Assembly (NCBI GenBank): GCA_947497245.1
Contig: CANMFO010000004.1
Location: 119,759-183,758 of the forward strand
Reading direction: 5' to 3'
Source: an uncultured Flavobacteriaceae bacterium
Lineage (GTDB): Bacteria; Bacteroidota; Bacteroidia; Flavobacteriales; Flavobacteriaceae
DNA: 64,000 bases
The notes under the pieces were generated by a model. The model saw only the letters and a program-made list of their open reading frames with translations. It was not told the DNA's origin and did not search any database. Below, one piece after another: positions 22,750 to 34,664 of this stretch. Positions within the stretch are counted from its first letter, which is position 1. The number at the start of each line of letters is the position of its first letter. A program made the position numbers and the translations under genes.

Positions 22750-25700
22750 ATGCGCAGCCTAGCCATCCTTCTCTTGTTAGCCGGCACCCATACGGCCATG
22801 GGCCAAGAGGCCAATAGCCTGCTTTGGGAGGTTTCGGGGAACGGCCTTTCCCAAAGTTCGTACCTCTACGGTACCATGCACGTGAGCAAACGTATTGCCT
22901 TTCGTTTGGACGATGTGTTCTACGAGGCCCTGGACCAAAGTGAAGTGGTGGCCCTGGAGTCCGACCCGGGCACCTGGCTCGAGAACGGCGATCTTATGGG
23001 CTTTATGGGATACGGCCGCGGCAAAGGGTTCTATTCCAAGGGCTTTTATAGCCGCCCCTTTGCGGTGAAAAACCCGCGAAAGGAGGAAATGGCGGCCTAC
23101 CTGGCCTTCGACGACAGCCGCGTGAACGGTATTCTGTACCGCAGCAATGAGAATTCCCAGAATTTTGAGGAAGAGACCTACCTGGACATGTTCATCTACC
23201 AGTCCGGCAAAAAGTTCGGAAAGCCCGTACTGGCCCTGGAAGACCTGGAGGAGTCCGCGGCCCTGGTAGGACGCGCCAGTCTGAACCCGATGAAGCAAAA
23301 GCCGGATGAATGGCTCCAAAAAAAAATGCAGCAGCAAGATTTTATGAGCTTGTTGCAGGATGCCTATCGCGATCGCAACATCAACCTTCTCGATTCCATC
23401 GATAAGGGGATGTACACCGATCACTATCTGGAGAACATGCTCTTCATACGCAACCGGAACATGGCCGAACGGTTGGATTCGGTAATCCGGACCGCAAGGA
23501 CCTTTACCGGTATCGGTGCGGCACACCTGCCCGGAAAGAAAGGCGTCATTGCCATGTTGCGGAACATGGGCTATACCGTAGAGCCCTTGTTGTCCAGGGC
23601 GACCTCGAAAGGAAGAAGGATCAAGGAGAAACTGGAACGGTACATCAGGGAAAACGAGTACAGCGCCATGGGTCCGGACGATGACTTTTTTAAGGTCGCC
23701 CTGCCCAATAAGCTCTATCCCGTGTCGGAGGCCCCCAATACGGTCTACGTGTCCCCCGATCTGGCCAACGGCAGCTACGTGATGGTCAACCGTATCCCCA
23801 CCTTCGCCCATCTGAAACGGGAATCGGTCTTTGGCCTGGACGATTTGGACGGCATGCTGTTCGAGAACATCCCGGGAAAGATCCTGGAGAAGGTCCGGTT
23901 CGAGCGAAACGGTTTTACCGGGATCGATATCAAGAACCAACTGAAGAACGGCGACCACCAGCGCTACCATATCTATGTGACCCCCTTGGAGATCCTTATT
24001 TTCAAGATGGGCGGTGATGGGGATTATGTGGTACAGCATTCCGATACCATTTTTAACAGCATCGAATTCAAAAAGCTGGGCAAGGGAAAGGTGACCGTAA
24101 CTTCGGGCCATGGCGATTTTGAGGTGCGGATGCCCTCCCTCCACAGTTTTACCAACCGTTCGAGGCCCGGCGACCGCTTGGTACAGGGATATGATTCCAT
24201 TTCGGACAGCTATTACTTCCTGCGGAAGAGCACCCTGAACGATTTCAATCATGTGGAGGAGGACACCTTTGAACTGAAACAGGTACAGAAACGGTTCTAC
24301 CAGGACCTGAAACTGAAGCCGGTGTACGATGGGTTCAAAGGAACTTCGCTCACCTCAAGGGCGATGATGGATTCGCTTACGGGGAAGCAGCTGCACCTGA
24401 GATCTACCTTCAAACGGGGCGATTACTATCTGATGGGGGTGGTGACCCGGGACGATACCGAGGCCGGGACCTATTTCGATTCCTTCAAGATAAAACCAAC
24501 AGAATATGCCGAAACCTTTGAAAAGGTGATCGACACGGCCCTGTTCTTCAGCACGCTAAGCACGGTCAAACCGCCCAAGTTCGTGGAGAACAGCAATATG
24601 TACCTCAACGGCCGCAACCGGCCCAAACCCTACAATGCCTATAACAAAAAAACGGTGTACCAGAACGGGAACAACGAGGCGGTGACCGTGGAGCTCAACA
24701 AATCGCACGATTTTATGATGTTCCCTGGCATCGATTCGGTCTGGGCCCTGCGGAAAAAGCTGTACGCCCAAAAGCGGTTCCTGATACGTGGGGAACGGGA
24801 CAGCAGCTACGCGGACGGGCACCACGAGCTGGAACTTACCCTGACCGATACGGCGACCTCGCGCGGGATATTGATCAAAAACGTACTGCGGGGCGGACTG
24901 CTGTACGAACTCAAGGCACAGGTAGATACCCTGGAGGCCCCCAGCCCCTTTGTCACGGCATTTTTTGACAACTTCAAGCTTTTGGACACCCTGATCGGAA
25001 AGGACATCCTGACCGACAGGACCCCTGATTTTTTCCGGGCCCTTCGAAAGAACGACAGTATACTGGGCAGTGGCTTGAACTTCATCCATTTTGAAAGAAA
25101 ACATGTGGACTCGCTGAAGCATTACATCGCCAATTTCGAATATCCGGAAGACAAAAAATACCTGCAGGCCCACCTCATCTCAAAATTGGGCCAGATCGAG
25201 GACCCACAAGTGGTGCCCTTCTTAAGATCGTTCTACGGCCGTTCGTACAACAATTCGGGTGCCCAGACCAAAATTTTGCAGGCGGTGAGCTGCAAGTCCG
25301 ATGAGGCCTCGGCCGCCCTTTTGCTGGAACTGTTGGCGAAGGACCTGCCGCTGGTATCGAACACCCTGGAGATCAACAAGATCTTCAGGCCCTATCTGGA
25401 CAGCCTCCCGCTGGCAAAAAAATTGTATCCAGAGCTGTTGGACTACAGTACCATCGAGGAATACAAATCGCCCATTTTTTCCATTTTGGCCAAGCTGCAG
25501 GCCAAGGGGCTGGCCAAACCGGGGAGCTATAAAAAGTACCGCAGGCAGATCCTGAACGATGCCAAGATCCAGCTCAAAAGGGAACTGGGCAGCAGCAGGG
25601 ATGCCACCACCGACGCCAACTACTACAACAATTCCCGAAAGACCCGGGGCAGGGTACTGGAAGATTACGCCATTTTGCTCTACCCGTTCAGAAAGGACAA

Positions 25701-26274
25701 AAACGTGCGGCAGTTCTTCGACCGGCTGCTATTGGTCAAGGACCGGCGCATACGAACCACCTATGCCATGTTGGTGGCCAAGGAGGGCGGCCCCGTGCCC
25801 GATGGAATGTTCCGGGAGCTGGCAGGCGATATCAACAGTAGGGCCATGTTGTTCAATAAACTGAAGCGCATCAAAAAATCGTACCTGTTCCCATCGGAAT
25901 TCCGGAACCCCCGGTTTTTGGCCGAATCGTCGCTCTATGCGAAGGGCCGTTTCAACGAAAAGCAGGATTCGCTCCAATTTATCGGACAGCGGCCCCTGCG
26001 GTACCGCGGGAAAGCGCTGACCGGCTATTACTTCAAGACCCGTGACAACGAAAACTACGATGGCAACTTCAATATCAACCTGGTCGTTTTTGAAAACGGA
26101 AAGGGGTTGACCACCAAGCCGTACTACAAGAAAGAGGGGGTGCGCATCGAGGACACCGACACCGATGCCGAGGCGATCGGGTTCGTGACCGAAGAGTTCC
26201 TTCTAAAGGACCGGCCCCGGGCCGAGGTGTACCGTCCCAATGCCTATGGCGGCTATGGGTTTCATGGGTACTAG
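22750..26274 (+). CDS. TraB/GumN-family domain protein with a ~850-aa C-terminal extension (1174 aa)
   Basis: Signal peptide, then LLWEVSGNGLSQSSYLYGTMHV and GAAHLPG, which mark TraB/GumN. I cannot assign the rest of the protein. Confidence 0.6.
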   Translation: MRSLAILLLLAGTHTAMGQEANSLLWEVSGNGLSQSSYLYGTMHVSKRIAFRLDDVFYEALDQSEVVALESDPGTWLENGDLMGFMGYGRGKGFYSKGFYSRPFAVKNPRKEEMAAYLAFDDSRVNGILYRSNENSQNFEEETYLDMFIYQSGKKFGKPVLALEDLEESAALVGRASLNPMKQKPDEWLQKKMQQQDFMSLLQDAYRDRNINLLDSIDKGMYTDHYLENMLFIRNRNMAERLDSVIRTARTFTGIGAAHLPGKKGVIAMLRNMGYTVEPLLSRATSKGRRIKEKLERYIRENEYSAMGPDDDFFKVALPNKLYPVSEAPNTVYVSPDLANGSYVMVNRIPTFAHLKRESVFGLDDLDGMLFENIPGKILEKVRFERNGFTGIDIKNQLKNGDHQRYHIYVTPLEILIFKMGGDGDYVVQHSDTIFNSIEFKKLGKGKVTVTSGHGDFEVRMPSLHSFTNRSRPGDRLVQGYDSISDSYYFLRKSTLNDFNHVEEDTFELKQVQKRFYQDLKLKPVYDGFKGTSLTSRAMMDSLTGKQLHLRSTFKRGDYYLMGVVTRDDTEAGTYFDSFKIKPTEYAETFEKVIDTALFFSTLSTVKPPKFVENSNMYLNGRNRPKPYNAYNKKTVYQNGNNEAVTVELNKSHDFMMFPGIDSVWALRKKLYAQKRFLIRGERDSSYADGHHELELTLTDTATSRGILIKNVLRGGLLYELKAQVDTLEAPSPFVTAFFDNFKLLDTLIGKDILTDRTPDFFRALRKNDSILGSGLNFIHFERKHVDSLKHYIANFEYPEDKKYLQAHLISKLGQIEDPQVVPFLRSFYGRSYNNSGAQTKILQAVSCKSDEASAALLLELLAKDLPLVSNTLEINKIFRPYLDSLPLAKKLYPELLDYSTIEEYKSPIFSILAKLQAKGLAKPGSYKKYRRQILNDAKIQLKRELGSSRDATTDANYYNNSRKTRGRVLEDYAILLYPFRKDKNVRQFFDRLLLVKDRRIRTTYAMLVAKEGGPVPDGMFRELAGDINSRAMLFNKLKRIKKSYLFPSEFRNPRFLAESSLYAKGRFNEKQDSLQFIGQRPLRYRGKALTGYYFKTRDNENYDGNFNINLVVFENGKGLTTKPYYKKEGVRIEDTDTDAEAIGFVTEEFLLKDRPRAEVYRPNAYGGYGFHGY

Positions 26275-26315: not shown

Positions 26316-26513
26316 GATTTTCAAAAGCACTTCCGCCCATTGTCAAGAAGACTTTCAGTGATTATCAAGAGGACATTCAGCGATTGTCAAGAAGACTTTC
26401 AGTGATTATCAAGAAGACATTCAGCGATTGTCAAGAAGACTTTCAGTGATTATCAAGAAGACATTCGGCGATTGTCAAGAAGACTTTCAGCGATTATCAA
26501 GAAAACTTAGAGG
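26316..26513. repeat. tandem array of nine 22-bp units with strictly alternating A/B variants (44-bp higher-order unit x4)
   Basis: A is GATTGTCAAGAAGACTTTCAGT and B is GATTATCAAGAAGACATTCAGC (19/22 identical). Units begin at 26316 (degenerate), 26338, 26360, 26382, 26404, 26426, 26448, 26470 and 26492 (degenerate). There are no spacers. Confidence 0.95.
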
Positions 26514-26627: not shown

Positions 26628-28310
26628 TCACTGGTCCACGGCAGTCTTCAAGCTGTCCGGAACTGTCTGTGGAACGGGGGTGGGCAAGGAATCCGCCGCA
26701 ATACTGTCGAGCAGTTGTACGGGCCGCATATCGCTATCTTGTTTCAAGGGATAAAGGTCGCTGTCGGACAGCCGCTCCGAAGCCTTCCAGGTCTCTCCCA
26801 ATTGGTGCAGTATGGTCGCCGTCCATTGCGAGGGATGCTTGGCATCGATCCATATCACATCGCGGTACTCGGCATCGACCAGGGCCAGGTCGGGGGTGGC
26901 GGCACCATCGAACTGCTTGCTGCTATCGCGGACCGCGGCGACCGTGCCGAGGACGAACAGGCGTTTTTTTCCGGCGATGTATTTGATGAAGGGCCGGAAC
27001 TCGACCGGTCTGTTGGCCGACCAATCGTACTCTTTTCTCGATTCCACGACCTTCAAGGGCATGGCGGAAACCCCTGCAAAACCTTCCTTTTTGGCAGAAT
27101 GGTTATAGTAGTACAGTTTGTCGGTACCATCTGCGGGCACCATGACGCTAAAGGCCAAACTGGTGCGCTCGTCGCCGATGGGCTCCAGCCCGAACCAATG
27201 GTAGAGCCCATTGAGGGCACTGACCTTCATCCCATCGAAATCGAAATCGGTGACATAGGGCTGCTGGTTCTGGTCCTCGGGCAGTTCGGGGATCTTCACC
27301 GCCGTCTTCATGTTCCAGGGCAAGGGGTCGGTAAAGCCGCCCAGAAACTGGAGCGACTGCGCCTGGATCCGCGATATTTTCTCCGCCAGGGTGTTCTGTC
27401 CCTTGAGGTAGGGGTGGTCCTTGATCTCGGATCGCGGGATATAGGTGCCCTTTCCAATGGTGACGCGCTCCAGATAGTCCCCAAGGTCGTGCTCCCCCGC
27501 ATCGATGACCATTACCCCGCCGTAGGTCGGGTAGGGGAAGAAGAACCCCTGCCACTTGATGAGGTTGACCACCTGCACCCACTTGCCCGTGTCGTTTTTC
27601 ATATAGAACACATCACTGGGTTCCATGGTGAACAGTTGAAAAAGGTTGAAGCGCTGTACCACGGCGTTGTAGGTGTTGCGGCTGAAGGCCAGGGATTCGC
27701 CAATGGAAAAGGTGACCGGGACCCTATTTTCGTTGGAGAACCTGGGGAACGGGGAGGTGCTCTCCACGGTAAAGATCTCCTCGCTGTTGTCGCTCATGCG
27801 CTGCCAGGTATACTCCTTGGCGGGCTGTACGGCCATGGTCCATTGGTTACTGCCATCGAGCCGTACCAATTGTGGCAGGGAAACTTCCTGAGTTTCGCCA
27901 ATGGATTCGTAGGCCATGGTGACGATATTGTTGAAGGGCTGGATCCGCTCGTTCCGGGTGAGGGGCAGCTCGTCCAGTTCTACCAGGTCCAGATTCCTGT
28001 AAACGTTATAGGTCTGCATGTACTGGTAGAGGTTCAGTTTCCATCCGAAGAACCAGAGCGTGACAAAGAAGGCCGCCATACCGGCCAAGATCAACACCCT
28101 TTTGCCCGCCCCCACCGCATTCCTAAATTTGGACAGGGCGAACCAAAGAAAGCCCGTGGCCAACAACAGGACAAAGCAGTACTTTCTCAAGAACAGCAAC
28201 GCGGGCTGGTAGTCGTCCCTAAGAAAGAAGAGCAGCAGCAACAGCACAATACCACCAACGGTGATGATACGCTTCTGTTTTTTTCCCTTTCGCCAGTATG
28301 TCTTGATCAT
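26628..28310 (-). CDS. membrane protein: 3 N-terminal TM helices plus a ~440-aa predicted extracytoplasmic domain, unassigned
   Basis: Lys/Arg-rich N-terminus (MIKTYWRKGKKQKR), then three hydrophobic helices and a large domain of normal composition. It is the last gene of the AAA cluster. Confidence 0.7.
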   Translation of the reverse strand: MIKTYWRKGKKQKRIITVGGIVLLLLLFFLRDDYQPALLFLRKYCFVLLLATGFLWFALSKFRNAVGAGKRVLILAGMAAFFVTLWFFGWKLNLYQYMQTYNVYRNLDLVELDELPLTRNERIQPFNNIVTMAYESIGETQEVSLPQLVRLDGSNQWTMAVQPAKEYTWQRMSDNSEEIFTVESTSPFPRFSNENRVPVTFSIGESLAFSRNTYNAVVQRFNLFQLFTMEPSDVFYMKNDTGKWVQVVNLIKWQGFFFPYPTYGGVMVIDAGEHDLGDYLERVTIGKGTYIPRSEIKDHPYLKGQNTLAEKISRIQAQSLQFLGGFTDPLPWNMKTAVKIPELPEDQNQQPYVTDFDFDGMKVSALNGLYHWFGLEPIGDERTSLAFSVMVPADGTDKLYYYNHSAKKEGFAGVSAMPLKVVESRKEYDWSANRPVEFRPFIKYIAGKKRLFVLGTVAAVRDSSKQFDGAATPDLALVDAEYRDVIWIDAKHPSQWTATILHQLGETWKASERLSDSDLYPLKQDSDMRPVQLLDSIAADSLPTPVPQTVPDSLKTAVDQ

Positions 28311-28348: not shown

Positions 28349-28876
28349 CTACTTGATCATACCCTTGTCCTTCAGCCGGTCCCTGGCCGATTTGGGGGGG
28401 TCGGCCCCGGCCTCGATCTTCCCGGCCTCCGGTGCGTCCCCTATTTTCTGGGCAGGGGCCTCTTTTTCATCGCCCTCGGCCAGGTCTTCGAGAAGTTCCC
28501 TACCCTTGTCGAACGCTTTTTCAAGGTTTTCCCTGCTGGCGCCGTCCTTGGCCAGAATAAAGGCGGAGGCCACGTAGGTGCCGATAAGCGTGCCCACGAT
28601 GGCGGAGGCGAAATATTGGACAAAGAACATGTTGATCGGCGTGACAAAGGTGACCACCGCCGCCCCCAACGAGAAGAGCAGCGTGACCCATACCAGGCGC
28701 AGCAGGAAGGCCTGCCGGTGCACAAAGCCTTTTTGGTCCTCGGGTTTCATCTGCAGTTCCCTCGAATGGGTGATCTTGTTCGCCAGGCGATACAGCTTGT
28801 TGCTTTTGGATTCCCTCCAATACCATACGATCCCGAAGAGGATGGCAAGGACAAATACGATGATTTCCAGTGTCAT
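28349..28876 (-). CDS. small 3-TM membrane protein with a charged C-terminal tail, unassigned
   Basis: 175 aa with three hydrophobic helices and the tail ...LAEGDEKEAPAQKIGDAPEAGKIEAGADPPKSARDRLKDKGMIK. Its ATG overlaps the upstream stop (ATGA at 28873-28876). Confidence 0.65.
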   Translation of the reverse strand: MTLEIIVFVLAILFGIVWYWRESKSNKLYRLANKITHSRELQMKPEDQKGFVHRQAFLLRLVWVTLLFSLGAAVVTFVTPINMFFVQYFASAIVGTLIGTYVASAFILAKDGASRENLEKAFDKGRELLEDLAEGDEKEAPAQKIGDAPEAGKIEAGADPPKSARDRLKDKGMIK

Positions 28877-30123
28877 GATGGTTGATTGTTATTGTTCAAT
28901 AAAATGTTCTCTATGACCCATTCCTGATAGGAGGGGTCCCAGTCCTCGTACAATTGGTAAAAGGTTTCCTTGTCGTACCAGTATAAATGTAGCGGATCTT
29001 TGGGCATGATCTTCACCAAGAGCTTCCAAATGAGCTCCCTGTGCTCCTCCTCCAAAGAGGAATGCGGCCTGTTCAGTGCCTTGCGGTACTGCACGTCGAC
29101 AAATTCCTCGATCTTGAGGTCGCGATCAACGGTCAGGCGCTGCAGATAGATCTCGACTCCGGATATTTTTTTCTTGGCGGCCAGGGGCAGTTTATCCAGG
29201 TACCTTTTGAACAGCATCTGGTTGTCCATGATCTCTTTGAACGAGTGCTCCTTTTTGGTGATGTGCTCCGAAAAGAGGTGTTTTTTGATCCGTTCGTACC
29301 GCGCCGTCCGTAGGGCATTTTTGAGGTTGCCCTCCACGATCAGGTGGCGCTCCAGGGTATCCACCAGTTCGTCGTGGCCCAAATGGAAGAGCAGCACGTC
29401 GTGCGCCGTGTCGCTGATGGCCTTTTTGAACCATTTTGGGTCTTCGAAGACGATGATGGTCTGGATGAAGTCCTTTAGGACAAAAACGCCTCCAAATGCC
29501 CGGGTGTGGAACGAACCCACCTTTAGGGCAATGGGATCCAAGCGCAGCTTCCGCTTCCGGAGGTCCCCGTACTTTTTGGCCGATTCCAGCAGTTTCCTGT
29601 GCACGTCGCGGTCGATGAAATTGTGTTTCCGGTTGAACCACTGGATCAGGGCCCTTTGTTCCTGTTGCTTTTCGGCGAGCTTGTCCAAAAGGGTAAAGCG
29701 GACGGTGATCTTGTCGTACCGTAGCAGATCAAAGGGATCGAAAAAGGTATCGATGTCCTGGTCCAGGTGCACGATCACCGCGGCATCTTTGGTAATGTCC
29801 CTGATCTCGCGGGCGTAGGCCGCGAAAACGGCGCCCATCACGTCGCGGTCAAAACTGTGGGAGGGCATGTGCACGGGTTTGTCCTTTTGGGCGGGCGAGA
29901 GGAGGATGGCGTTGACATTGGCCTCCCCTACGTTGAGGTACCGATTGTCCTTTTTTTCTACGGCGACCTCGGGGCTCCATCCCATCCCGTCAATGGAAAA
30001 CTGTTTTAGCTTGGTGGCCTTGACGCCCAAAAGGGCCAGGCAGTCGTTGTACCGTGCCACCAAAGACCCCGAGAGCGTTACCAACGCCCCGTCGATCAGA
30101 CCGGCTTCCCTTAGTTTTTCCAT
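28873..30123 (-). CDS. hypothetical soluble protein (416 aa), unassigned
   Basis: Long ORF of ordinary composition that starts 3 nt after the AAA gene's stop. It has no TM segment and no motif I recognise. Confidence 0.7.
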   Translation of the reverse strand: MEKLREAGLIDGALVTLSGSLVARYNDCLALLGVKATKLKQFSIDGMGWSPEVAVEKKDNRYLNVGEANVNAILLSPAQKDKPVHMPSHSFDRDVMGAVFAAYAREIRDITKDAAVIVHLDQDIDTFFDPFDLLRYDKITVRFTLLDKLAEKQQEQRALIQWFNRKHNFIDRDVHRKLLESAKKYGDLRKRKLRLDPIALKVGSFHTRAFGGVFVLKDFIQTIIVFEDPKWFKKAISDTAHDVLLFHLGHDELVDTLERHLIVEGNLKNALRTARYERIKKHLFSEHITKKEHSFKEIMDNQMLFKRYLDKLPLAAKKKISGVEIYLQRLTVDRDLKIEEFVDVQYRKALNRPHSSLEEEHRELIWKLLVKIMPKDPLHLYWYDKETFYQLYEDWDPSYQEWVIENILLNNNNQPS

Positions 30124-30126
30124 TTT

Positions 30127-32094
30127 CTATTTGTTTCCCCCGTTTTCAAAAATTCGGTTGGCCTCCAGGTTCACGTTCATATCGTGCACGCGGCCATCGA
30201 CCTTGCGCTTGAAGTCGGTATCGGCGATGGTCGCCACATTGTCCAGGTAGCGGACCACTTCCTGCCGACGGATGTCCGAGAAATCGAGCCCCTTCATATT
30301 CTGTTTCATCAGGTCCTGCAACATGGCGAACTTGGTCGCATAGTCTTTTTTAAAGTAGCGAGAGGCATCGCTGAACCAATCCTCCGGCAGGTCAAAATCG
30401 GTCAGGCGCAACGATATGGCGCTCTGGATGTTGCGGATGTCCCTGGAGGAGAAGAACGGAAAGGCCTTTTGTATATTTTTATAGAGCTCGGCAAAGAACA
30501 TATGGGTGCCCGTCCCGTGCTTGGCCTCGGTCTGTTCGTAGATTTCAAGTACCTTCTCTTCCGTGGGCCGGTCTGATCGGCCCAAGATCTCGCCCAGGTT
30601 CTTGGCCAGTCCCTGTTCGCTCAGGAATTCGTACCCGTCCGGATTTTTGATATTGACAAAATCGGGCATGCTTTCGTTCAGCTTGCGCCACCACAGGTAA
30701 TCCTGGTCCACAAAATCGGGAAGGGTCCGGGCACCATCTATCTTGAACCGCCCCTGCACCCGGGATATCACGGCCTTGTCCAACATTTCGGGCAGGTTGG
30801 TAAAGAGCCCTATGGAGCTGTTGCCGTAATTGATGGCATAGGCCCCTTCGGTGTAGCGCAAAAACACTCCGATCACCTCCTTTACCCCGGCCGATACCCC
30901 TTGGGCCGTTCGTTCCTGCAAATTGTTCTCCGCATCGTCGATGGGGGCAAAGATCAGCTTGTTGGGGTCCTGCAGGGGCTTCATCCACTGCACCATCTTT
31001 TCTGCGGAACCGCCCTGGAAGGTAGAGATCAGTGTGTCGGGCATGGGATGGAACAAGAAGGGGATCTCCAGTTCGTCACAATGTTCCTTCAAGCGCGTCG
31101 CGATTGCGGCGATCAACATGCTCTTTCCCGTTCCGGGGATGCCATAGCCCATAAAAACGGGCATGAAGCCCCCCAATTCCTGAAAGGGGTTCTTTTTGGC
31201 CACAAAATCGTAGCTGAGCATCCTTTCCGTCAACCGACGGGCGAAATGTTTCGCATCGCGGTTCCCGACGATCTCCTCGAACTGGATTTTGTTGAACTCC
31301 ACACTTTTGGCCGTTCCCTCCAGTACATTTTCCCATCCGGAAACGGCGAACCCGCTCTTCTCCAATTTATAGGTACGGTCCGTTATGGTCTCGGTATGTT
31401 CCAAACTGTTGATCCGCATCTGTATTTCCGAGATCAGGGCCTCGAAAAACACCACGGTAAAGTTCAGTACCTCCACATCGGAAGTAATGATCTCGGGATG
31501 GTCGAGGTACTTGTCAAAATAAAAGAGCATACAGGAAATTCCCTTTAAGGGAGACATCAACGAGACCTCGGGAATACCGGCGAATTTGTTCTTCATGACA
31601 CTGAGGTCGTCCGAGACCAAGGGTTTCAGATCGAAAAGGATCTTATAGGCGGTACCGTACAGCATAAAGGCGGTGGCGGTGTGCAATTTGGAATCGTATT
31701 CGCGGCGCAGGGGGGCATCCAGGGAACCCTTGCGCTCGTTCAGGGACGAAAGTCCGGAGGCGTCGTAATAACTATCCTTGAGCCAGATGCCCATGGCGAG
31801 CCCCTCTTGCAGGGAGTACAGTGCCTGGTTCAAGTGTACGGGAATGGCCACGGAGTCGGGCAACAGCCTCTTTTTAAGGGACAGGATGGTCTTGGATACC
31901 GAAATGACCTCATTGGCCGAAGTGCCCTGGGCCTTGGACAAGTACAGTAGGATGGAGCTGTCCTTTTTGTCCTTGTTGCGGCTCTTTGCCTTTCCGCCCT
32001 GCTCCCATTGCACCCCCTTTAGATAGGAAGTGGCCTCGTTGCGAAGGGCTTCGAGCTCGTTCAATTTGATGGGAAAGGTACTGTTGTGTTCCAT
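30127..32094 (-). CDS. AAA+ ATPase (classic AAA clade) with an unassigned ~270-aa N-terminal domain
   Basis: Walker A is GYGIPGTGKS (aa 316-325) and Walker B is LIFAPIDDAE (aa 380-389). Also present are LDKAVISRVQGRFKI (arginine/SRH-like) and a lid-like FFSSRDIRNIQSAISLR. The TAATG at 32092-32096 shares nt 32094 between the upstream stop and this start. Confidence 0.85.
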   Translation of the reverse strand: MEHNSTFPIKLNELEALRNEATSYLKGVQWEQGGKAKSRNKDKKDSSILLYLSKAQGTSANEVISVSKTILSLKKRLLPDSVAIPVHLNQALYSLQEGLAMGIWLKDSYYDASGLSSLNERKGSLDAPLRREYDSKLHTATAFMLYGTAYKILFDLKPLVSDDLSVMKNKFAGIPEVSLMSPLKGISCMLFYFDKYLDHPEIITSDVEVLNFTVVFFEALISEIQMRINSLEHTETITDRTYKLEKSGFAVSGWENVLEGTAKSVEFNKIQFEEIVGNRDAKHFARRLTERMLSYDFVAKKNPFQELGGFMPVFMGYGIPGTGKSMLIAAIATRLKEHCDELEIPFLFHPMPDTLISTFQGGSAEKMVQWMKPLQDPNKLIFAPIDDAENNLQERTAQGVSAGVKEVIGVFLRYTEGAYAINYGNSSIGLFTNLPEMLDKAVISRVQGRFKIDGARTLPDFVDQDYLWWRKLNESMPDFVNIKNPDGYEFLSEQGLAKNLGEILGRSDRPTEEKVLEIYEQTEAKHGTGTHMFFAELYKNIQKAFPFFSSRDIRNIQSAISLRLTDFDLPEDWFSDASRYFKKDYATKFAMLQDLMKQNMKGLDFSDIRRQEVVRYLDNVATIADTDFKRKVDGRVHDMNVNLEANRIFENGGNK

Positions 32095-33149
32095 TAATCC
32101 AGTTTTAATGCGGGAACCTCTATCGGTTCCTGTGTTAATAAATGCAACGCTTCGGGAATATTGTCGTAAAAGACCTGTAGGACCCGGTGCGGAGCGAATA
32201 GATAAGTGTCCTTGGTGGTGGGCGCCCAGACCTGGAGGTACTGTTTGCTGAAAAAGCCGCCCTGCGAAAAATTCCCGGTGGAAAGGGTCTCATCGATCCG
32301 CATGGACAGCGCAAAGGCCGAGAGGTCCAGGGTCTTTTCCACGATGGCCTTGAGCACGGTATGGGTCACCAGCAGTTCGTCCTTGGCGAACACATTGTGC
32401 AAAGGCCCCAGGTCCAGTTTCCTTACTTTTTTGGGCCAGAGGTTGGGCAACTTTTTGTCAATGGCATAGGCCATCATGTCCAAGTCCATGTTTCGGTCCG
32501 CAGTGTTCTCCAGGACATCGTAGATCTTCTGCCTGTAGTCTTCAAGTTTTTCCTTGTACAGGTCAAAGTACATGAAGCATATGAAAGGGCGGTTATGGGT
32601 CACATCGTAGAATGCCCAACTGACCATGTACTGTGCTTCAGCCCCTTCGCCCACCTCTAAGATCTTTCCCTGCACGAAGCGCTTGAAAATGTACTGTTGC
32701 TCCACCGAGGAATAATAGATGATGGAGGCCGCCTGTTGCAGCCTGCGTTCCGGGATCGGCCGTTTGTCCCTCAAGAGCGATTCCAGGAACTCGGCCTTTA
32801 CCGTCCCGATTTCGGGCAACTTTTGGATGTGCTGCTGCTTGAGTTCCAGGTCGTTGAACAGGTACCGGAACTCCAAATAGTTGGGAAAGCCCGATTCGGT
32901 AAGGTCGATGCGCATTTTTTCCTCGTCGTCATAGAGGTATTTTATGCGAAAGGCCTCCAGTGAATACGTCATCAACTCACAGTATTGTTTTACCAGGGCG
33001 GCCTCGAGCCCATTGCATATCCGCTTTTCGGCGATGCTGTCGACGAGTCCGTCAAAGGCGTGGGTCACAATTTTAAAGTACACCGAATACTGTTCCTTGG
33101 TCTCAAGAACGGCGCTATCCAATGGTGTGACTATTTGGTTGATGGACAT
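32094..33149 (-). CDS. hypothetical soluble protein (351 aa), unassigned
   Basis: ATG at 33149. Its stop shares one nucleotide with the AAA start codon. No TM segment and no recognised motif. Confidence 0.7.
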   Translation of the reverse strand: MSINQIVTPLDSAVLETKEQYSVYFKIVTHAFDGLVDSIAEKRICNGLEAALVKQYCELMTYSLEAFRIKYLYDDEEKMRIDLTESGFPNYLEFRYLFNDLELKQQHIQKLPEIGTVKAEFLESLLRDKRPIPERRLQQAASIIYYSSVEQQYIFKRFVQGKILEVGEGAEAQYMVSWAFYDVTHNRPFICFMYFDLYKEKLEDYRQKIYDVLENTADRNMDLDMMAYAIDKKLPNLWPKKVRKLDLGPLHNVFAKDELLVTHTVLKAIVEKTLDLSAFALSMRIDETLSTGNFSQGGFFSKQYLQVWAPTTKDTYLFAPHRVLQVFYDNIPEALHLLTQEPIEVPALKLD

Positions 33150-33317
33150 TTGGGCGGATTTTAAAATGTCTTATATTGATTTTTAGATGGAACCGCGGGG
33201 CCGCGGGAAACCCGGGACCTGGCGGTGCCCGAAACGGAGACCTCCCTGCAATGCCCTGGCCACTTTCGGCACCGGCCATGGCCGTACGGGGGGCTCAGGT
33301 TCTACAAAAAACCCCTG

Positions 33318-34664
33318 TCAGCTCAGCAGGTCGTCCTCTACGGGGGGCTTCGGAGGTTCCGGAGTTTCGTCGCCATCCCCGGCGCCCGGGGGGGCGTTGC
33401 CATCGGAGGCGTAGTATTCCTCGAAAATCTCCTTCATGTCGATACCGTAGCGGTCGGCGAAGTTCTTTTGGATGTCGGCATCCTTGACCCGGATCTCCTG
33501 AAGCGATTCGGCATAGCTGGAGTAAACGCCCTGCATCACTTTTTCGTGGACGGGGATATTGTCCATCATTTCCTGTCTCGCCTTGGCGCTCGCGGTGTGC
33601 ATAGCGGCCAGGGTCTGCCCGATGTGTTCGTCGGTCTTCACCCCGAGGTGTTCCAAAATGGCGGCAAATTCCTGGTCGGTCCGGGCTTTTAGGGCCACTA
33701 CGTAGCCGTCATAATATTTTAGACGTTCATCGGTATCGCTCTTTAGCTTGGCCCGGTGCGTCTGCAAATTGCTTCTCAGGGAGGTCAGTACCTTGATGGT
33801 CAGGTTGTGCTTGTGCACAAAGCTGTCCTTACTGGCCGCTAGCGTGGTATAGGCGTTTTTGAGACCTTCCAGTTCCTCTACCTTTTGTTCAATGATGGTC
33901 ACCTTACCGATCGCTTCGGAATAGGCCGCCGATTGTTTGTCCGCTATTTCCTCGAGCGCCTGCCTTGCCTGTTTCAACAGGGCGTACTGCTCCTCCAGTT
34001 TGGCCTCGGTCTCCTTCTTTTTCTCTAGGGCCTTGGTGTGGTTCTTGCTCGCCTCCACGATGGCCACCTGTAATTTGTCCTCGACCTCTTTGATCTCGAC
34101 CTCCCTGTTCTTTAAGCGGGCCACGGCCGCCTGGCTCTTATAGGAAAGCTCGTTCAGAAGGGTTTGGATATCGGCCGATTCGATGCGTTCCTGGAACATG
34201 GCCTTGGCCTTCATGTCGGCCCCATCGCGTACTTTTTGGGCAGCGTCCAGCTCGGCCTGGCGTTTTCTGATCCTCGATTTGCGCCCCCAAAGGTTGTTCC
34301 ACCAATTGTCCTTTACCTTTTCGGCATCCTCAAGTGCCAATTTGGCGCGGTCCAAACCTTTTTGGGCATCGTCGATCACTTTTTGTTCGGCCGCGTTCAG
34401 GGTGGAGAATTTTTCAAAGATGATACCGACCTCATCTTGGTAATCGGTGAGGTCCTTTATGGCATCCAAAAGGGTAGATCGGTCCTTTTCCGCCATGCCC
34501 ACCACGTCATCGAGGGTGGCGTTCAGGATCTTTTGGCGTACTTCGGGGTCATCTTCTTGGGCAAGCTTGGACTTCATCTGGTCCACCGCCTTTCCCCAAT
34601 TGACATCTACTTGTTCCTGTTTGGAGCTGGAATCGGTCTCTAATAAATCAAAATCGTCGGCCAT
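33318..34664 (-). CDS. acidic coiled-coil protein (448 aa) with a Pro-rich acidic C-terminal tail, unassigned
   Basis: Long E/K/A/Q/L-rich helical stretches, for example KALEKKKETEAKLEEQYALLKQARQALEEIADKQ. The tail reads SDGNAPPGAGDGDETPEPPKPPVEDDLLS. Confidence 0.7.
   Translation of the reverse strand: MADDFDLLETDSSSKQEQVDVNWGKAVDQMKSKLAQEDDPEVRQKILNATLDDVVGMAEKDRSTLLDAIKDLTDYQDEVGIIFEKFSTLNAAEQKVIDDAQKGLDRAKLALEDAEKVKDNWWNNLWGRKSRIRKRQAELDAAQKVRDGADMKAKAMFQERIESADIQTLLNELSYKSQAAVARLKNREVEIKEVEDKLQVAIVEASKNHTKALEKKKETEAKLEEQYALLKQARQALEEIADKQSAAYSEAIGKVTIIEQKVEELEGLKNAYTTLAASKDSFVHKHNLTIKVLTSLRSNLQTHRAKLKSDTDERLKYYDGYVVALKARTDQEFAAILEHLGVKTDEHIGQTLAAMHTASAKARQEMMDNIPVHEKVMQGVYSSYAESLQEIRVKDADIQKNFADRYGIDMKEIFEEYYASDGNAPPGAGDGDETPEPPKPPVEDDLLS

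Follow-up and report, generated by a model that had tools for sequence, protein, structure and literature searches.

The window analysed here is a stretch of 64,000 nucleotides from the genome of an uncultured Flavobacteriaceae bacterium (assembly GCA_947497245.1, contig CANMFO010000004.1). It contains a gene for an AAA ATPase of 655 amino acids (aa) at positions 30127–32094, identified as an open reading frame (ORF), by Pfam and by homologue searches. An original prediction, made from the letters alone, had placed an ATPase ORF here without giving its strand; the ORF exists and lies on the minus strand. It is the third of six co-oriented minus-strand genes that overlap or nearly abut. Its start ATG overlaps by one base the stop codon of the gene upstream, and the following ORF begins 3 nucleotides past its own stop. 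From first to last, the cassette encodes an acidic coiled-coil protein of 448 aa (33318–34664, described from its sequence and by locus comparison), a soluble orphan protein of 351 aa lacking any Pfam match (32094–33149), the ATPase, a DUF6638 protein of 416 aa (28873–30123; PF20343, E 6.7e-26), a membrane protein of 175 aa whose three hydrophobic segments were recognised by hydrophobicity (28349–28876) and a second membrane protein of 560 aa (26628–28310). The last of these has a basic N-terminus, three hydrophobic segments and approximately 470 aa predicted to lie outside the cytoplasm. The analysis below leads us to regard the ATPase as the founding type of an undescribed single-module family of the classic AAA clade, and as the motor of an undescribed six-gene cassette that is linked to the membrane by two of its six products. 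The fold of the motor is known, whilst its domain set, altered catalytic motifs and partner set are new.

The ATPase gene is real and is conserved strongly, far beyond chance. A word-indexed protein search returned 1,751 relatives, of which the best 120 were full-length, 82–93% identical and spread over many Flavobacteriaceae genera; all 120 carry PF00004. An exhaustive HMMER search against 50%-identity representatives gave 435 clusters at E≤1e-3 and 125 at E≤1e-30. Relatives at the latter threshold are nearly all 620–680 aa long and align from the N-domain to the C-terminus, and the three-part architecture is therefore a fixed trait of the family. In the window protein, an N-domain (residues 1–255, 31330–32094) composed mostly of long helices with a small sheet is followed by a flexible linker (approximately residues 256–262) and the large alpha/beta domain of the AAA module (residues 263–452, 30739–31308). 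An enlarged lid, or small domain (residues 453–600, 30295–30738), and a C-terminal helix of 48 residues (605–652, 30139–30282) complete the chain. The large domain is delimited by its model (mean predicted local distance difference test, pLDDT, 93.3), by column counts in 80 homologues and by profile alignment to the FtsH of the same genome; the lid is delimited by the model and alignments, and the helix by the model and structural alignments.

The claim that this protein has a classic AAA core held up, with sequence profiles, the predicted structure (pLDDT 93) and a search of its own genome in agreement. The blocks on which that claim was built are all present at the residues quoted for them: the Walker A block GYGIPGTGKS (residues 316–325), the Walker B block LIFAPIDDAE (380–389), the sensor block GLFTNLPEML (429–438), LDKAVISRVQGRFKI (438–452), which resembles the second region of homology (SRH), and FFSSRDIRNIQSAISLR (547–563), which resembles the lid helix. 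Pfam AAA (PF00004) was the only family above threshold, scoring 35.9 bits over residues 317–452 against a gathering threshold of 21.2. The best NCBIfam models were CdvC, IteA, FtsH and CDC48, every score lying far under its cut-off. Searched against the PDB as a single sequence, the ATPase matched VAT, Vps4B/SKD1, Yme1, Vps4 and FtsH (E 2e-4 to 6e-3). A family profile of 80 diverse members returned only classic AAA proteins among its best 60 matches (Cdc48, VAT, p97, AFG2/DRG1, NSF, NVL, Rix7 and Vps4), and its top single-module match was Vps4B/SKD1 at 64 bits, with each Cdc48 module at 52–54 bits (D1 54).

The same relationships were seen within the genome of origin. When a hidden Markov model (HMM) of the core was run against all ORFs of this 5.25-Mb genome, it recovered the ATPase itself (1e-101), FtsH (4e-13) and one other PF00004 protein (5e-12), with nothing further below E 0.03 and no ClpX, ClpB, Lon, HslU, RuvB or MoxR. 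The other PF00004 protein is a stand-alone protein of 466 aa (G000, C2:691233–692633). In hhalign, the ATPase matched its own FtsH with a probability of 97.7 over the large domain only, the alignment ending at residue 445. Both the nearest folds and the nearest paralogues are classic-clade proteins, and a better fit to a non-classic clade such as MoxR, RuvB or Lon, which the original prediction had allowed for, was not found in these comparisons. We are highly confident that the module belongs to the classic AAA clade, where it lies closest to Vps4/CdvC and Cdc48, and that it constitutes a family of its own.

A closer inspection of 80 diverse homologues, 24–94% identical to the query, revealed which catalytic and pore residues are retained. 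Walker A takes the form G318-x-P-G321-T-G323-K324-S/T, with K324 in all 80, and the Walker B aspartate D386 is found in 79. The position after it (D387) is Asp in 75 members and Glu in the remaining five, and a Glu lies two positions further on (E389) in 69. The classic Walker B D-E-I-D is therefore replaced by D-D-A-E in the ATPase, which does not match the hhhhDE pattern with its catalytic Glu. An Arg after Walker B (R395) is kept in 77/80, the sensor-1 Asn (N433) in 80/80 and the first SRH arginine (R445) in 80/80; the second (R449) is Arg in 60 and Lys in 15 more. Pore loop 1, F359-Q360-G361, has the family form [F/Y]-Q-G: Phe or Tyr occupies the first position in 66/80, the remainder being Leu, Met or Trp, Gln360 sits at the classic hydrophobic position in 78/80, and G361 is present in 79/80. 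The lid motif is F-[T/S]-S-R-D-[I/V]-R-N-I-Q, in which R551 is invariant and N555 nearly so. When S-S-R-D-I is aligned by motif to the S-G-A-D-I of G-x-S-G-A-D-I, R551, which starts helix 550–564 in the predicted structure, falls at the sensor-2 position, occupied by Ala in classic AAA proteins. Judged from these alignments, the D-D-A-E Walker B, the [F/Y]-Q-G pore loop and the invariant Arg at the sensor-2 position are three signatures of the family that the original prediction did not contain. The conserved catalytic and pore residues make it likely that the ATPase is an active motor.

The N-domain had been called an orphan, and our searches bear this out: the first ~255 residues have no match in Pfam or NCBIfam, nor to a solved or viral fold. 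Residues 1–265 were modelled with a pLDDT of 91.2 and a predicted template-modelling score of 0.90. Confidence drops at residues 261–265, and in the other model at 250–258, which argues for a linker after the domain. The long helices span residues 86–113, 127–159, 182–198 and 206–226, two of them being about 30 residues in length, and are accompanied by five short strands. Foldseek found no match in the PDB below E 0.42 and nothing in a library of viral structures below E 0.6. MIT, CDC48-N, FtsH-type and degenerate-AAA folds were each considered and none appears among the fold matches listed; for the MIT three-helix bundle there was also no Pfam match at E≤1, and the domain itself measures 255 aa. 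Profile comparison with the other cassette proteins showed no similarity. The N-domain diverges faster than the motor (13–36% against 24–53% identity in distant homologues) and is always present. The models thus describe a confidently predicted fold that has no known relative.

The lid-helix block had been noticed to lie roughly 50 aa further from the arginine region than in textbook modules. The predicted structure accounts for this spacing with ~50 extra residues before the helix bearing SRDIRN. In the model, strand beta5 (448–451) and lid helix 1 (458–475) are followed by a 37-residue coil (476–512), an extra helix (513–525), a helix at 531–544, the SRDIRN helix (550–564), a helix at 585–599 and the C-terminal helix (605–652). 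The coil and the extra helix make up the insertion (residues 476–525, 30520–30669), which is defined by secondary structure, pLDDT, conserved positions and surplus length. The coil is well ordered, with mean pLDDT values of 90–96 for blocks of ten residues apart from one block of 80 (residues 500–509), and it bears Pro, Phe and Tyr positions conserved in the family together with an invariant Q494. Against Rpt or Msp1 chains, the large domain and first lid helix have a surplus of just ~10 residues. Structural alignments that reach model residue 374 (residue 623 of the protein) cover 363–366 residues of the model compared with 300 of p97 D2 and 285 of spastin, a surplus of 63–81 residues across the same structural span. 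The surplus of 60–80 residues over the whole span must therefore sit in the lid. The first part of the C-terminal helix falls inside structural alignments that run nearly to the C-terminal end of Vps4, spastin and p97-D2 chains. By sequence the lid cannot be aligned, the hhalign comparison with FtsH stopping short of it, and the insertion therefore rests on the predicted structure rather than on sequence. According to the model, the lid carries an insertion of about 50 conserved residues.

No recognisable relative was seen for any of the five partners of the ATPase. Pfam recognised only DUF6638 amongst them. Profiles of the 351-aa, DUF6638, 560-aa and coiled-coil proteins found nothing in the PDB below E 0.01, single-sequence searches of the PDB were likewise empty, and no homology was detected among the cassette proteins themselves. 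The coiled-coil protein opens with a conserved motif, M-x-D-D-F-D-L-L-E (DFDLLE), and its variable C-terminal Pro/acidic linker ends in D-D-L-L-S, a tail which is kept in a 29%-identical Bacteroidota relative and is absent from proteobacterial forms. Its Trp-rich basic stretch, WWNNLWGRK, is conserved, also in the 29%-identical relative, and is replaced in proteobacterial forms by a short hydrophobic-basic G-I-F-x-[R/K]. Three candidate identities for this protein were rejected by sequence comparison. An hhalign comparison with Escherichia coli PspA gave a probability of 0.5%; neither the window protein nor three distant homologues had a Pfam match to Snf7, PspA or TelA; and a TelA lead (Atlas, 0.84) gained no support from a TelA Pfam match. 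The genome itself (G000, 99.9% complete) has no match to PspA/IM30 (PF04012) or TelA (PF05816) at E≤0.01. A complex prediction for the N-domain with the coiled-coil protein, run without controls, scored 0.00 against a mark of 0.32 and speaks neither for nor against binding.

Scans of the cassette for promoters and terminators gave nothing convincing. At its start, the spacer after the coiled-coil gene (33150–33317) has a short hairpin, CCTG...CAGG, with a run of T6, after which it is GC-rich with several palindromes (ggccatggcc, cccgcggccccgcgg). This region may be a partial terminator that would raise the product of the first gene over the rest. Just downstream of the last gene lies a tandem array with a 22-bp repeat (26316–26513) containing four evenly spaced promoter-like matches on the minus strand, TTGACA-N18-GATAAT (one GAAAAT), at 10–11 of 12 positions, and a second phased set, TTGATA-N18-GACAAT.

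The order of the six genes is kept in 80 Flavobacteriaceae loci wherever the contig is long enough. Median identity to the window across these loci is 88% for the coiled-coil protein, 82% for the ATPase, 74% for the 560-aa protein, 66% for the 351-aa protein, 60% for DUF6638 and 58% for the 175-aa protein, making the coiled-coil protein the most conserved member of the cassette across genera. HemA, encoded in the flank, has a median identity of 81% (range 69–85%) in the nearest 17 genomes only; set against this value, the coiled-coil protein and the ATPase indicate that the cassette is constrained no less than a housekeeping enzyme. As far as protein identities tell, the cassette is under purifying selection. 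In another family of the same class, a relative with 32% identity has five of the six genes in order, with a membrane ORF in the sixth position.

The flanking genes on one side are hemA, one for an AraC regulator and one that is AmiA-like; on the other side they encode a TraB/GumN protein of 1174 aa and ferrochelatase. They are common only to the nearest ~17 genomes (for example Pelagihabitans, Aggregatimonas, Maribacter, Muriicola and Cellulophaga), and the cassette has therefore been inherited vertically there. The 1174-aa protein (22750–26274) adjoins the cassette, also in the nearest 17 genomes, and combines an N-terminal TraB/PrgY/GumN domain (E 3e-35) with ~850 residues lacking assignment. 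Four other genera have ordinary metabolic or envelope genes as neighbours, and no mobile or defence genes. In a flavobacterial subclade including Polaribacter and Psychroserpens, a gene for a Nudix hydrolase lies between the ATPase gene, whose end it overlaps, and DUF6638 (L094:10922–11539, L081:10946–11533, L014:7905–8489). Further passengers, placed at this junction or after it, encode an RDD membrane protein, a lipocalin-like protein and a four-helix protein of the 23S-rRNA-IVP type; the window has none of these. One variant cassette (L013, G191:C5), with an ATPase 75% identical to that of the window, has no match to DUF6638 or to the two membrane proteins within the 17-kb stretch covered; downstream of its ATPase gene there are instead three small ORFs (150, 194 and 152 aa) and one of 1490 aa.

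Sampling one genome per genus, we found the gene in 93 of 300 Flavobacteriaceae genera, as a single copy with 65–90% identity. Across the phylum, 4 of 301 Bacteroidota genomes carry it, and a motif scan of 185,579 species genomes, built from a 23-row alignment, detected at least 483 carriers. The ATPase also occurs on replicons of Sinorhizobium, Shinella and Rhizobium and on Vibrio megaplasmids of ~0.9 Mb. For one distant homologue, NCBI gives a Patescibacteria bacterium as the source. The loci examined from Sinorhizobium meliloti, Vibrio vulnificus and Rhizobium leguminosarum have a core of four genes, encoding the coiled-coil protein, the orphan, the ATPase and DUF6638; in the S. meliloti locus the membrane partner is a different one, DUF2333. 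A sequence upstream of the S. meliloti coiled-coil gene (L016:4425–4470), CCCTTGTC...CCTTTATAT, looks by eye like an RpoH-type promoter of alphaproteobacteria; the cassette of Vibrio instead has a sigma-70-like promoter, TTGACA-N16-TAATAT. The AAA gene of S. meliloti may be SMc02733, which is our unverified guess from gene order. SMc02733 appears in the literature once, as an intragenic ChvI-binding fragment.

These features can be assembled into a candidate mechanism. By homology to classic AAA proteins, the ATPase would form a ring, a hexamer, with ATP bound at the subunit interfaces, and the loops of its central pore would pull on a protein substrate. The 255-aa helical N-domain would select this substrate or an adaptor, and the enlarged lid and long C-terminal helix might govern ring assembly or the coupling to partners. 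The motor would act on products of its own cassette. In such a scheme the 448-aa coiled-coil protein would build an assembly at the inner membrane, its Trp-rich basic stretch being suited to a membrane interface and its acidic D-x-D-L-L motifs lying on flexible ends. The two membrane proteins would anchor the assembly, and the ATPase would dismantle or remodel it, aided by the 351-aa and DUF6638 proteins. We consider this picture as a whole, a classic-clade AAA motor remodelling a membrane-associated coiled-coil assembly, to be evenly balanced between right and wrong. The choice of the coiled-coil assembly as specific substrate and the role at the membrane, both drawn from gene context, are put forward more tentatively and fall somewhat short of an even chance. 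A further step would be that bacteria own a non-homologous counterpart of the Vps4/ESCRT-III or NSF/SNARE principle, with an AAA motor that cyclically disassembles a membrane-bound polymer of the 448-aa protein; this is offered by analogy and we think it rather doubtful.

Several observations weigh against the remodelling picture. Contact between the ATPase and its partners is something that we infer from gene context. The coiled-coil protein has no detectable homology to PspA or ESCRT-III, and the comparison with Vps4/ESCRT-III is therefore an analogy only. In the proteobacterial forms the coiled-coil protein has no C-terminal tail and neither of the flavobacterial membrane genes is present, so that not every form has the membrane anchor. 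Of the sampled Flavobacteriaceae genera about two thirds lack the gene, and copies in four genomes (G506, G316, G412 and G349) are fragmentary or have one to three in-frame TAA stops, a pattern that suggests decay of the cassette in some lineages; the cassette is therefore dispensable in many of them. Lastly, the catalytic Glu is replaced by Asp in 75 of the 80 members, and the ATPase might work slowly, as a switch, and not as a processive unfoldase.

This last point can be developed into an alternative in which the ATPase serves as an assembly chaperone or as a slow switch gated by ATP, and helps to build or license the membrane complex instead of taking a polymer apart. ATP binding would either hold a ring or partner complex together, as in NSF D2, or drive one conformational change in a partner, as TRIP13 does with HORMA proteins. 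NSF D2 carries the same D-D-x-E and hydrolyses ATP very slowly, and for this reason the alternative stays alive. Such a switch would fit the D-D of Walker B, where the Glu is displaced by two positions, and also the invariant Arg at the sensor-2 position, which is unusual among classic AAA proteins. Moreover, TRIP13-type clusters are among the nearest named neighbours by language-model features (0.92), a bacterial Trip13 chain ranks 21st in the fold matches, and the best NSF stretch for the family profile lies in D2 (chain residues 498–667). However, the family resembles active translocases in conserving the pore aromatic, sensor-1, the two arginines of the SRH and the Arg that follows Walker B, and Asp can serve as general base. 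TRIP13 is one among many equal classic-clade matches, and sequence searches identified no HORMA-like partner. We regard a switch as unlikely.

Quality control or extraction of membrane proteins under envelope or heat stress, in the manner of Msp1 or of an FtsH without its protease, would turn the coiled-coil and orphan proteins into scaffold and adaptors rather than substrate. Chains of Msp1, FtsH, AFG3L2 and Yme1 type are among the best fold and sequence matches, the cassette has two membrane proteins and the genome has no PspA or TelA. The CTTG...CCTTTATAT element upstream of the S. meliloti cassette, similar to an RpoH-type promoter, would also fit; it was read by eye only, however, and the TTGACA/TAATAT of the Vibrio copy is sigma-70-like. 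The ATPase itself has no transmembrane segment, and a coiled-coil protein that is conserved so highly is more easily understood as a structural polymer than as an adaptor, leaving this explanation improbable. An anti-phage or abortive-infection system, with the ATPase sensing or processing a phage protein and the membrane proteins as its effector, is very unlikely: although IetA/IteA matches exist (PADLOC, E 5e-4; NCBIfam, 18.4 bits), the gene is patchy across the phylum (4/301) and some genera have passenger genes within the operon, the PADLOC defence library gave just these weak IetA hits, for the ATPase, on the whole cassette, the IteA score is far under its cut-off of 510, the cassette occupies a fixed chromosomal site between haem-biosynthesis genes in the nearest 17 genomes and has housekeeping neighbours free of mobile or defence genes in four other genera, and a single copy per genome at 65–90% identity in about a third of genera is far more conserved than defence genes usually are.

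Should the cassette be a bacterial counterpart of the Vps4/ESCRT-III or NSF/SNARE principle, it would be an ATP-driven machine for membrane remodelling or repair in marine Flavobacteriaceae, Rhodobacterales and rhizobia, some Vibrio and Patescibacteria. The substrate of the ATPase, once found, would give a function to the whole cassette with its five uncharacterised partners, and could also tell whether bacteria possess an ATP-driven turnover of membrane-bound helical assemblies, which current reviews say is lacking. Moreover, the combination of an orphan N-domain, an Asp-Asp Walker B, a pore Gln and an Arg at the sensor-2 position makes this family a natural case for asking to what extent the classic catalytic layout is really needed. 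Few classic-clade AAA ATPases are known in bacteria. They include FtsH, the actinobacterial Mpa/ARC and Cpa, and scattered transfers from archaea. Our literature search found no paper on the ATPase family or on DUF6638, and nothing relevant on DUF2333 or DUF1523. Two surveys, covering bacterial PspA/ESCRT partners and ESCRT systems, contain no description of the family. A comparative-genomics paper on PSP lists other AAA+ partners, which have two domains or are fused to a coiled coil and beta-propeller, and according to a 2025 review (PMC7619361) a Vps4-like ATPase 'appears absent in bacteria'.

Amongst known systems, Vps4/CdvC would be nearest in mode of action, yet membership of Vps4/CdvC or of Cdc48 was rejected on scores far under cut-off, no detected MIT, no ESCRT-III partner by sequence comparison, a single module and a differing Walker B. 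The CdvC model (NF041006) gives the ATPase 19.6 bits against a cut-off of 650. Compared with Vps4/CdvC, the ATPase has a 255-aa N-domain in which no MIT was detected, DD rather than DE in Walker B, an aromatic-Q-G pore loop and Arg at the sensor-2 position. In place of ESCRT-III it has a coiled-coil partner without Snf7/PspA homology, and its cassette adds two orphan soluble proteins and membrane proteins. Cdc48, p97 and VAT have two AAA modules and a double-psi-barrel N-domain, whereas the ATPase has one P-loop and an unrelated helical N-domain whose model is not an alpha/beta AAA core (TIGR01243, 11 bits against 803). FtsH is its closest paralogue in the same genome, as seen from the HMM search (4e-13) and from the hhalign probability of 97.7 over the large domain; unlike FtsH, the ATPase has no hydrophobic segment and no Peptidase_M41 match, and it scores 16 bits against 600 with TIGR01241. 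The resemblance to IetA/IteA consists of weak matches around the P-loop and core (NF042959, 18.4 bits against 510; PADLOC IetA, E 5e-4), and the cassette differs in having no IetS-type protease and in its housekeeping genomic setting. With NSF, the ATPase shares the D-D-x-E form of Walker B. NSF D2 is not known to have a pore-loop aromatic or a true arginine finger, whereas the ATPase family keeps both. NSF acts on coiled-coil assemblies at membranes, and the ATPase may do the same.

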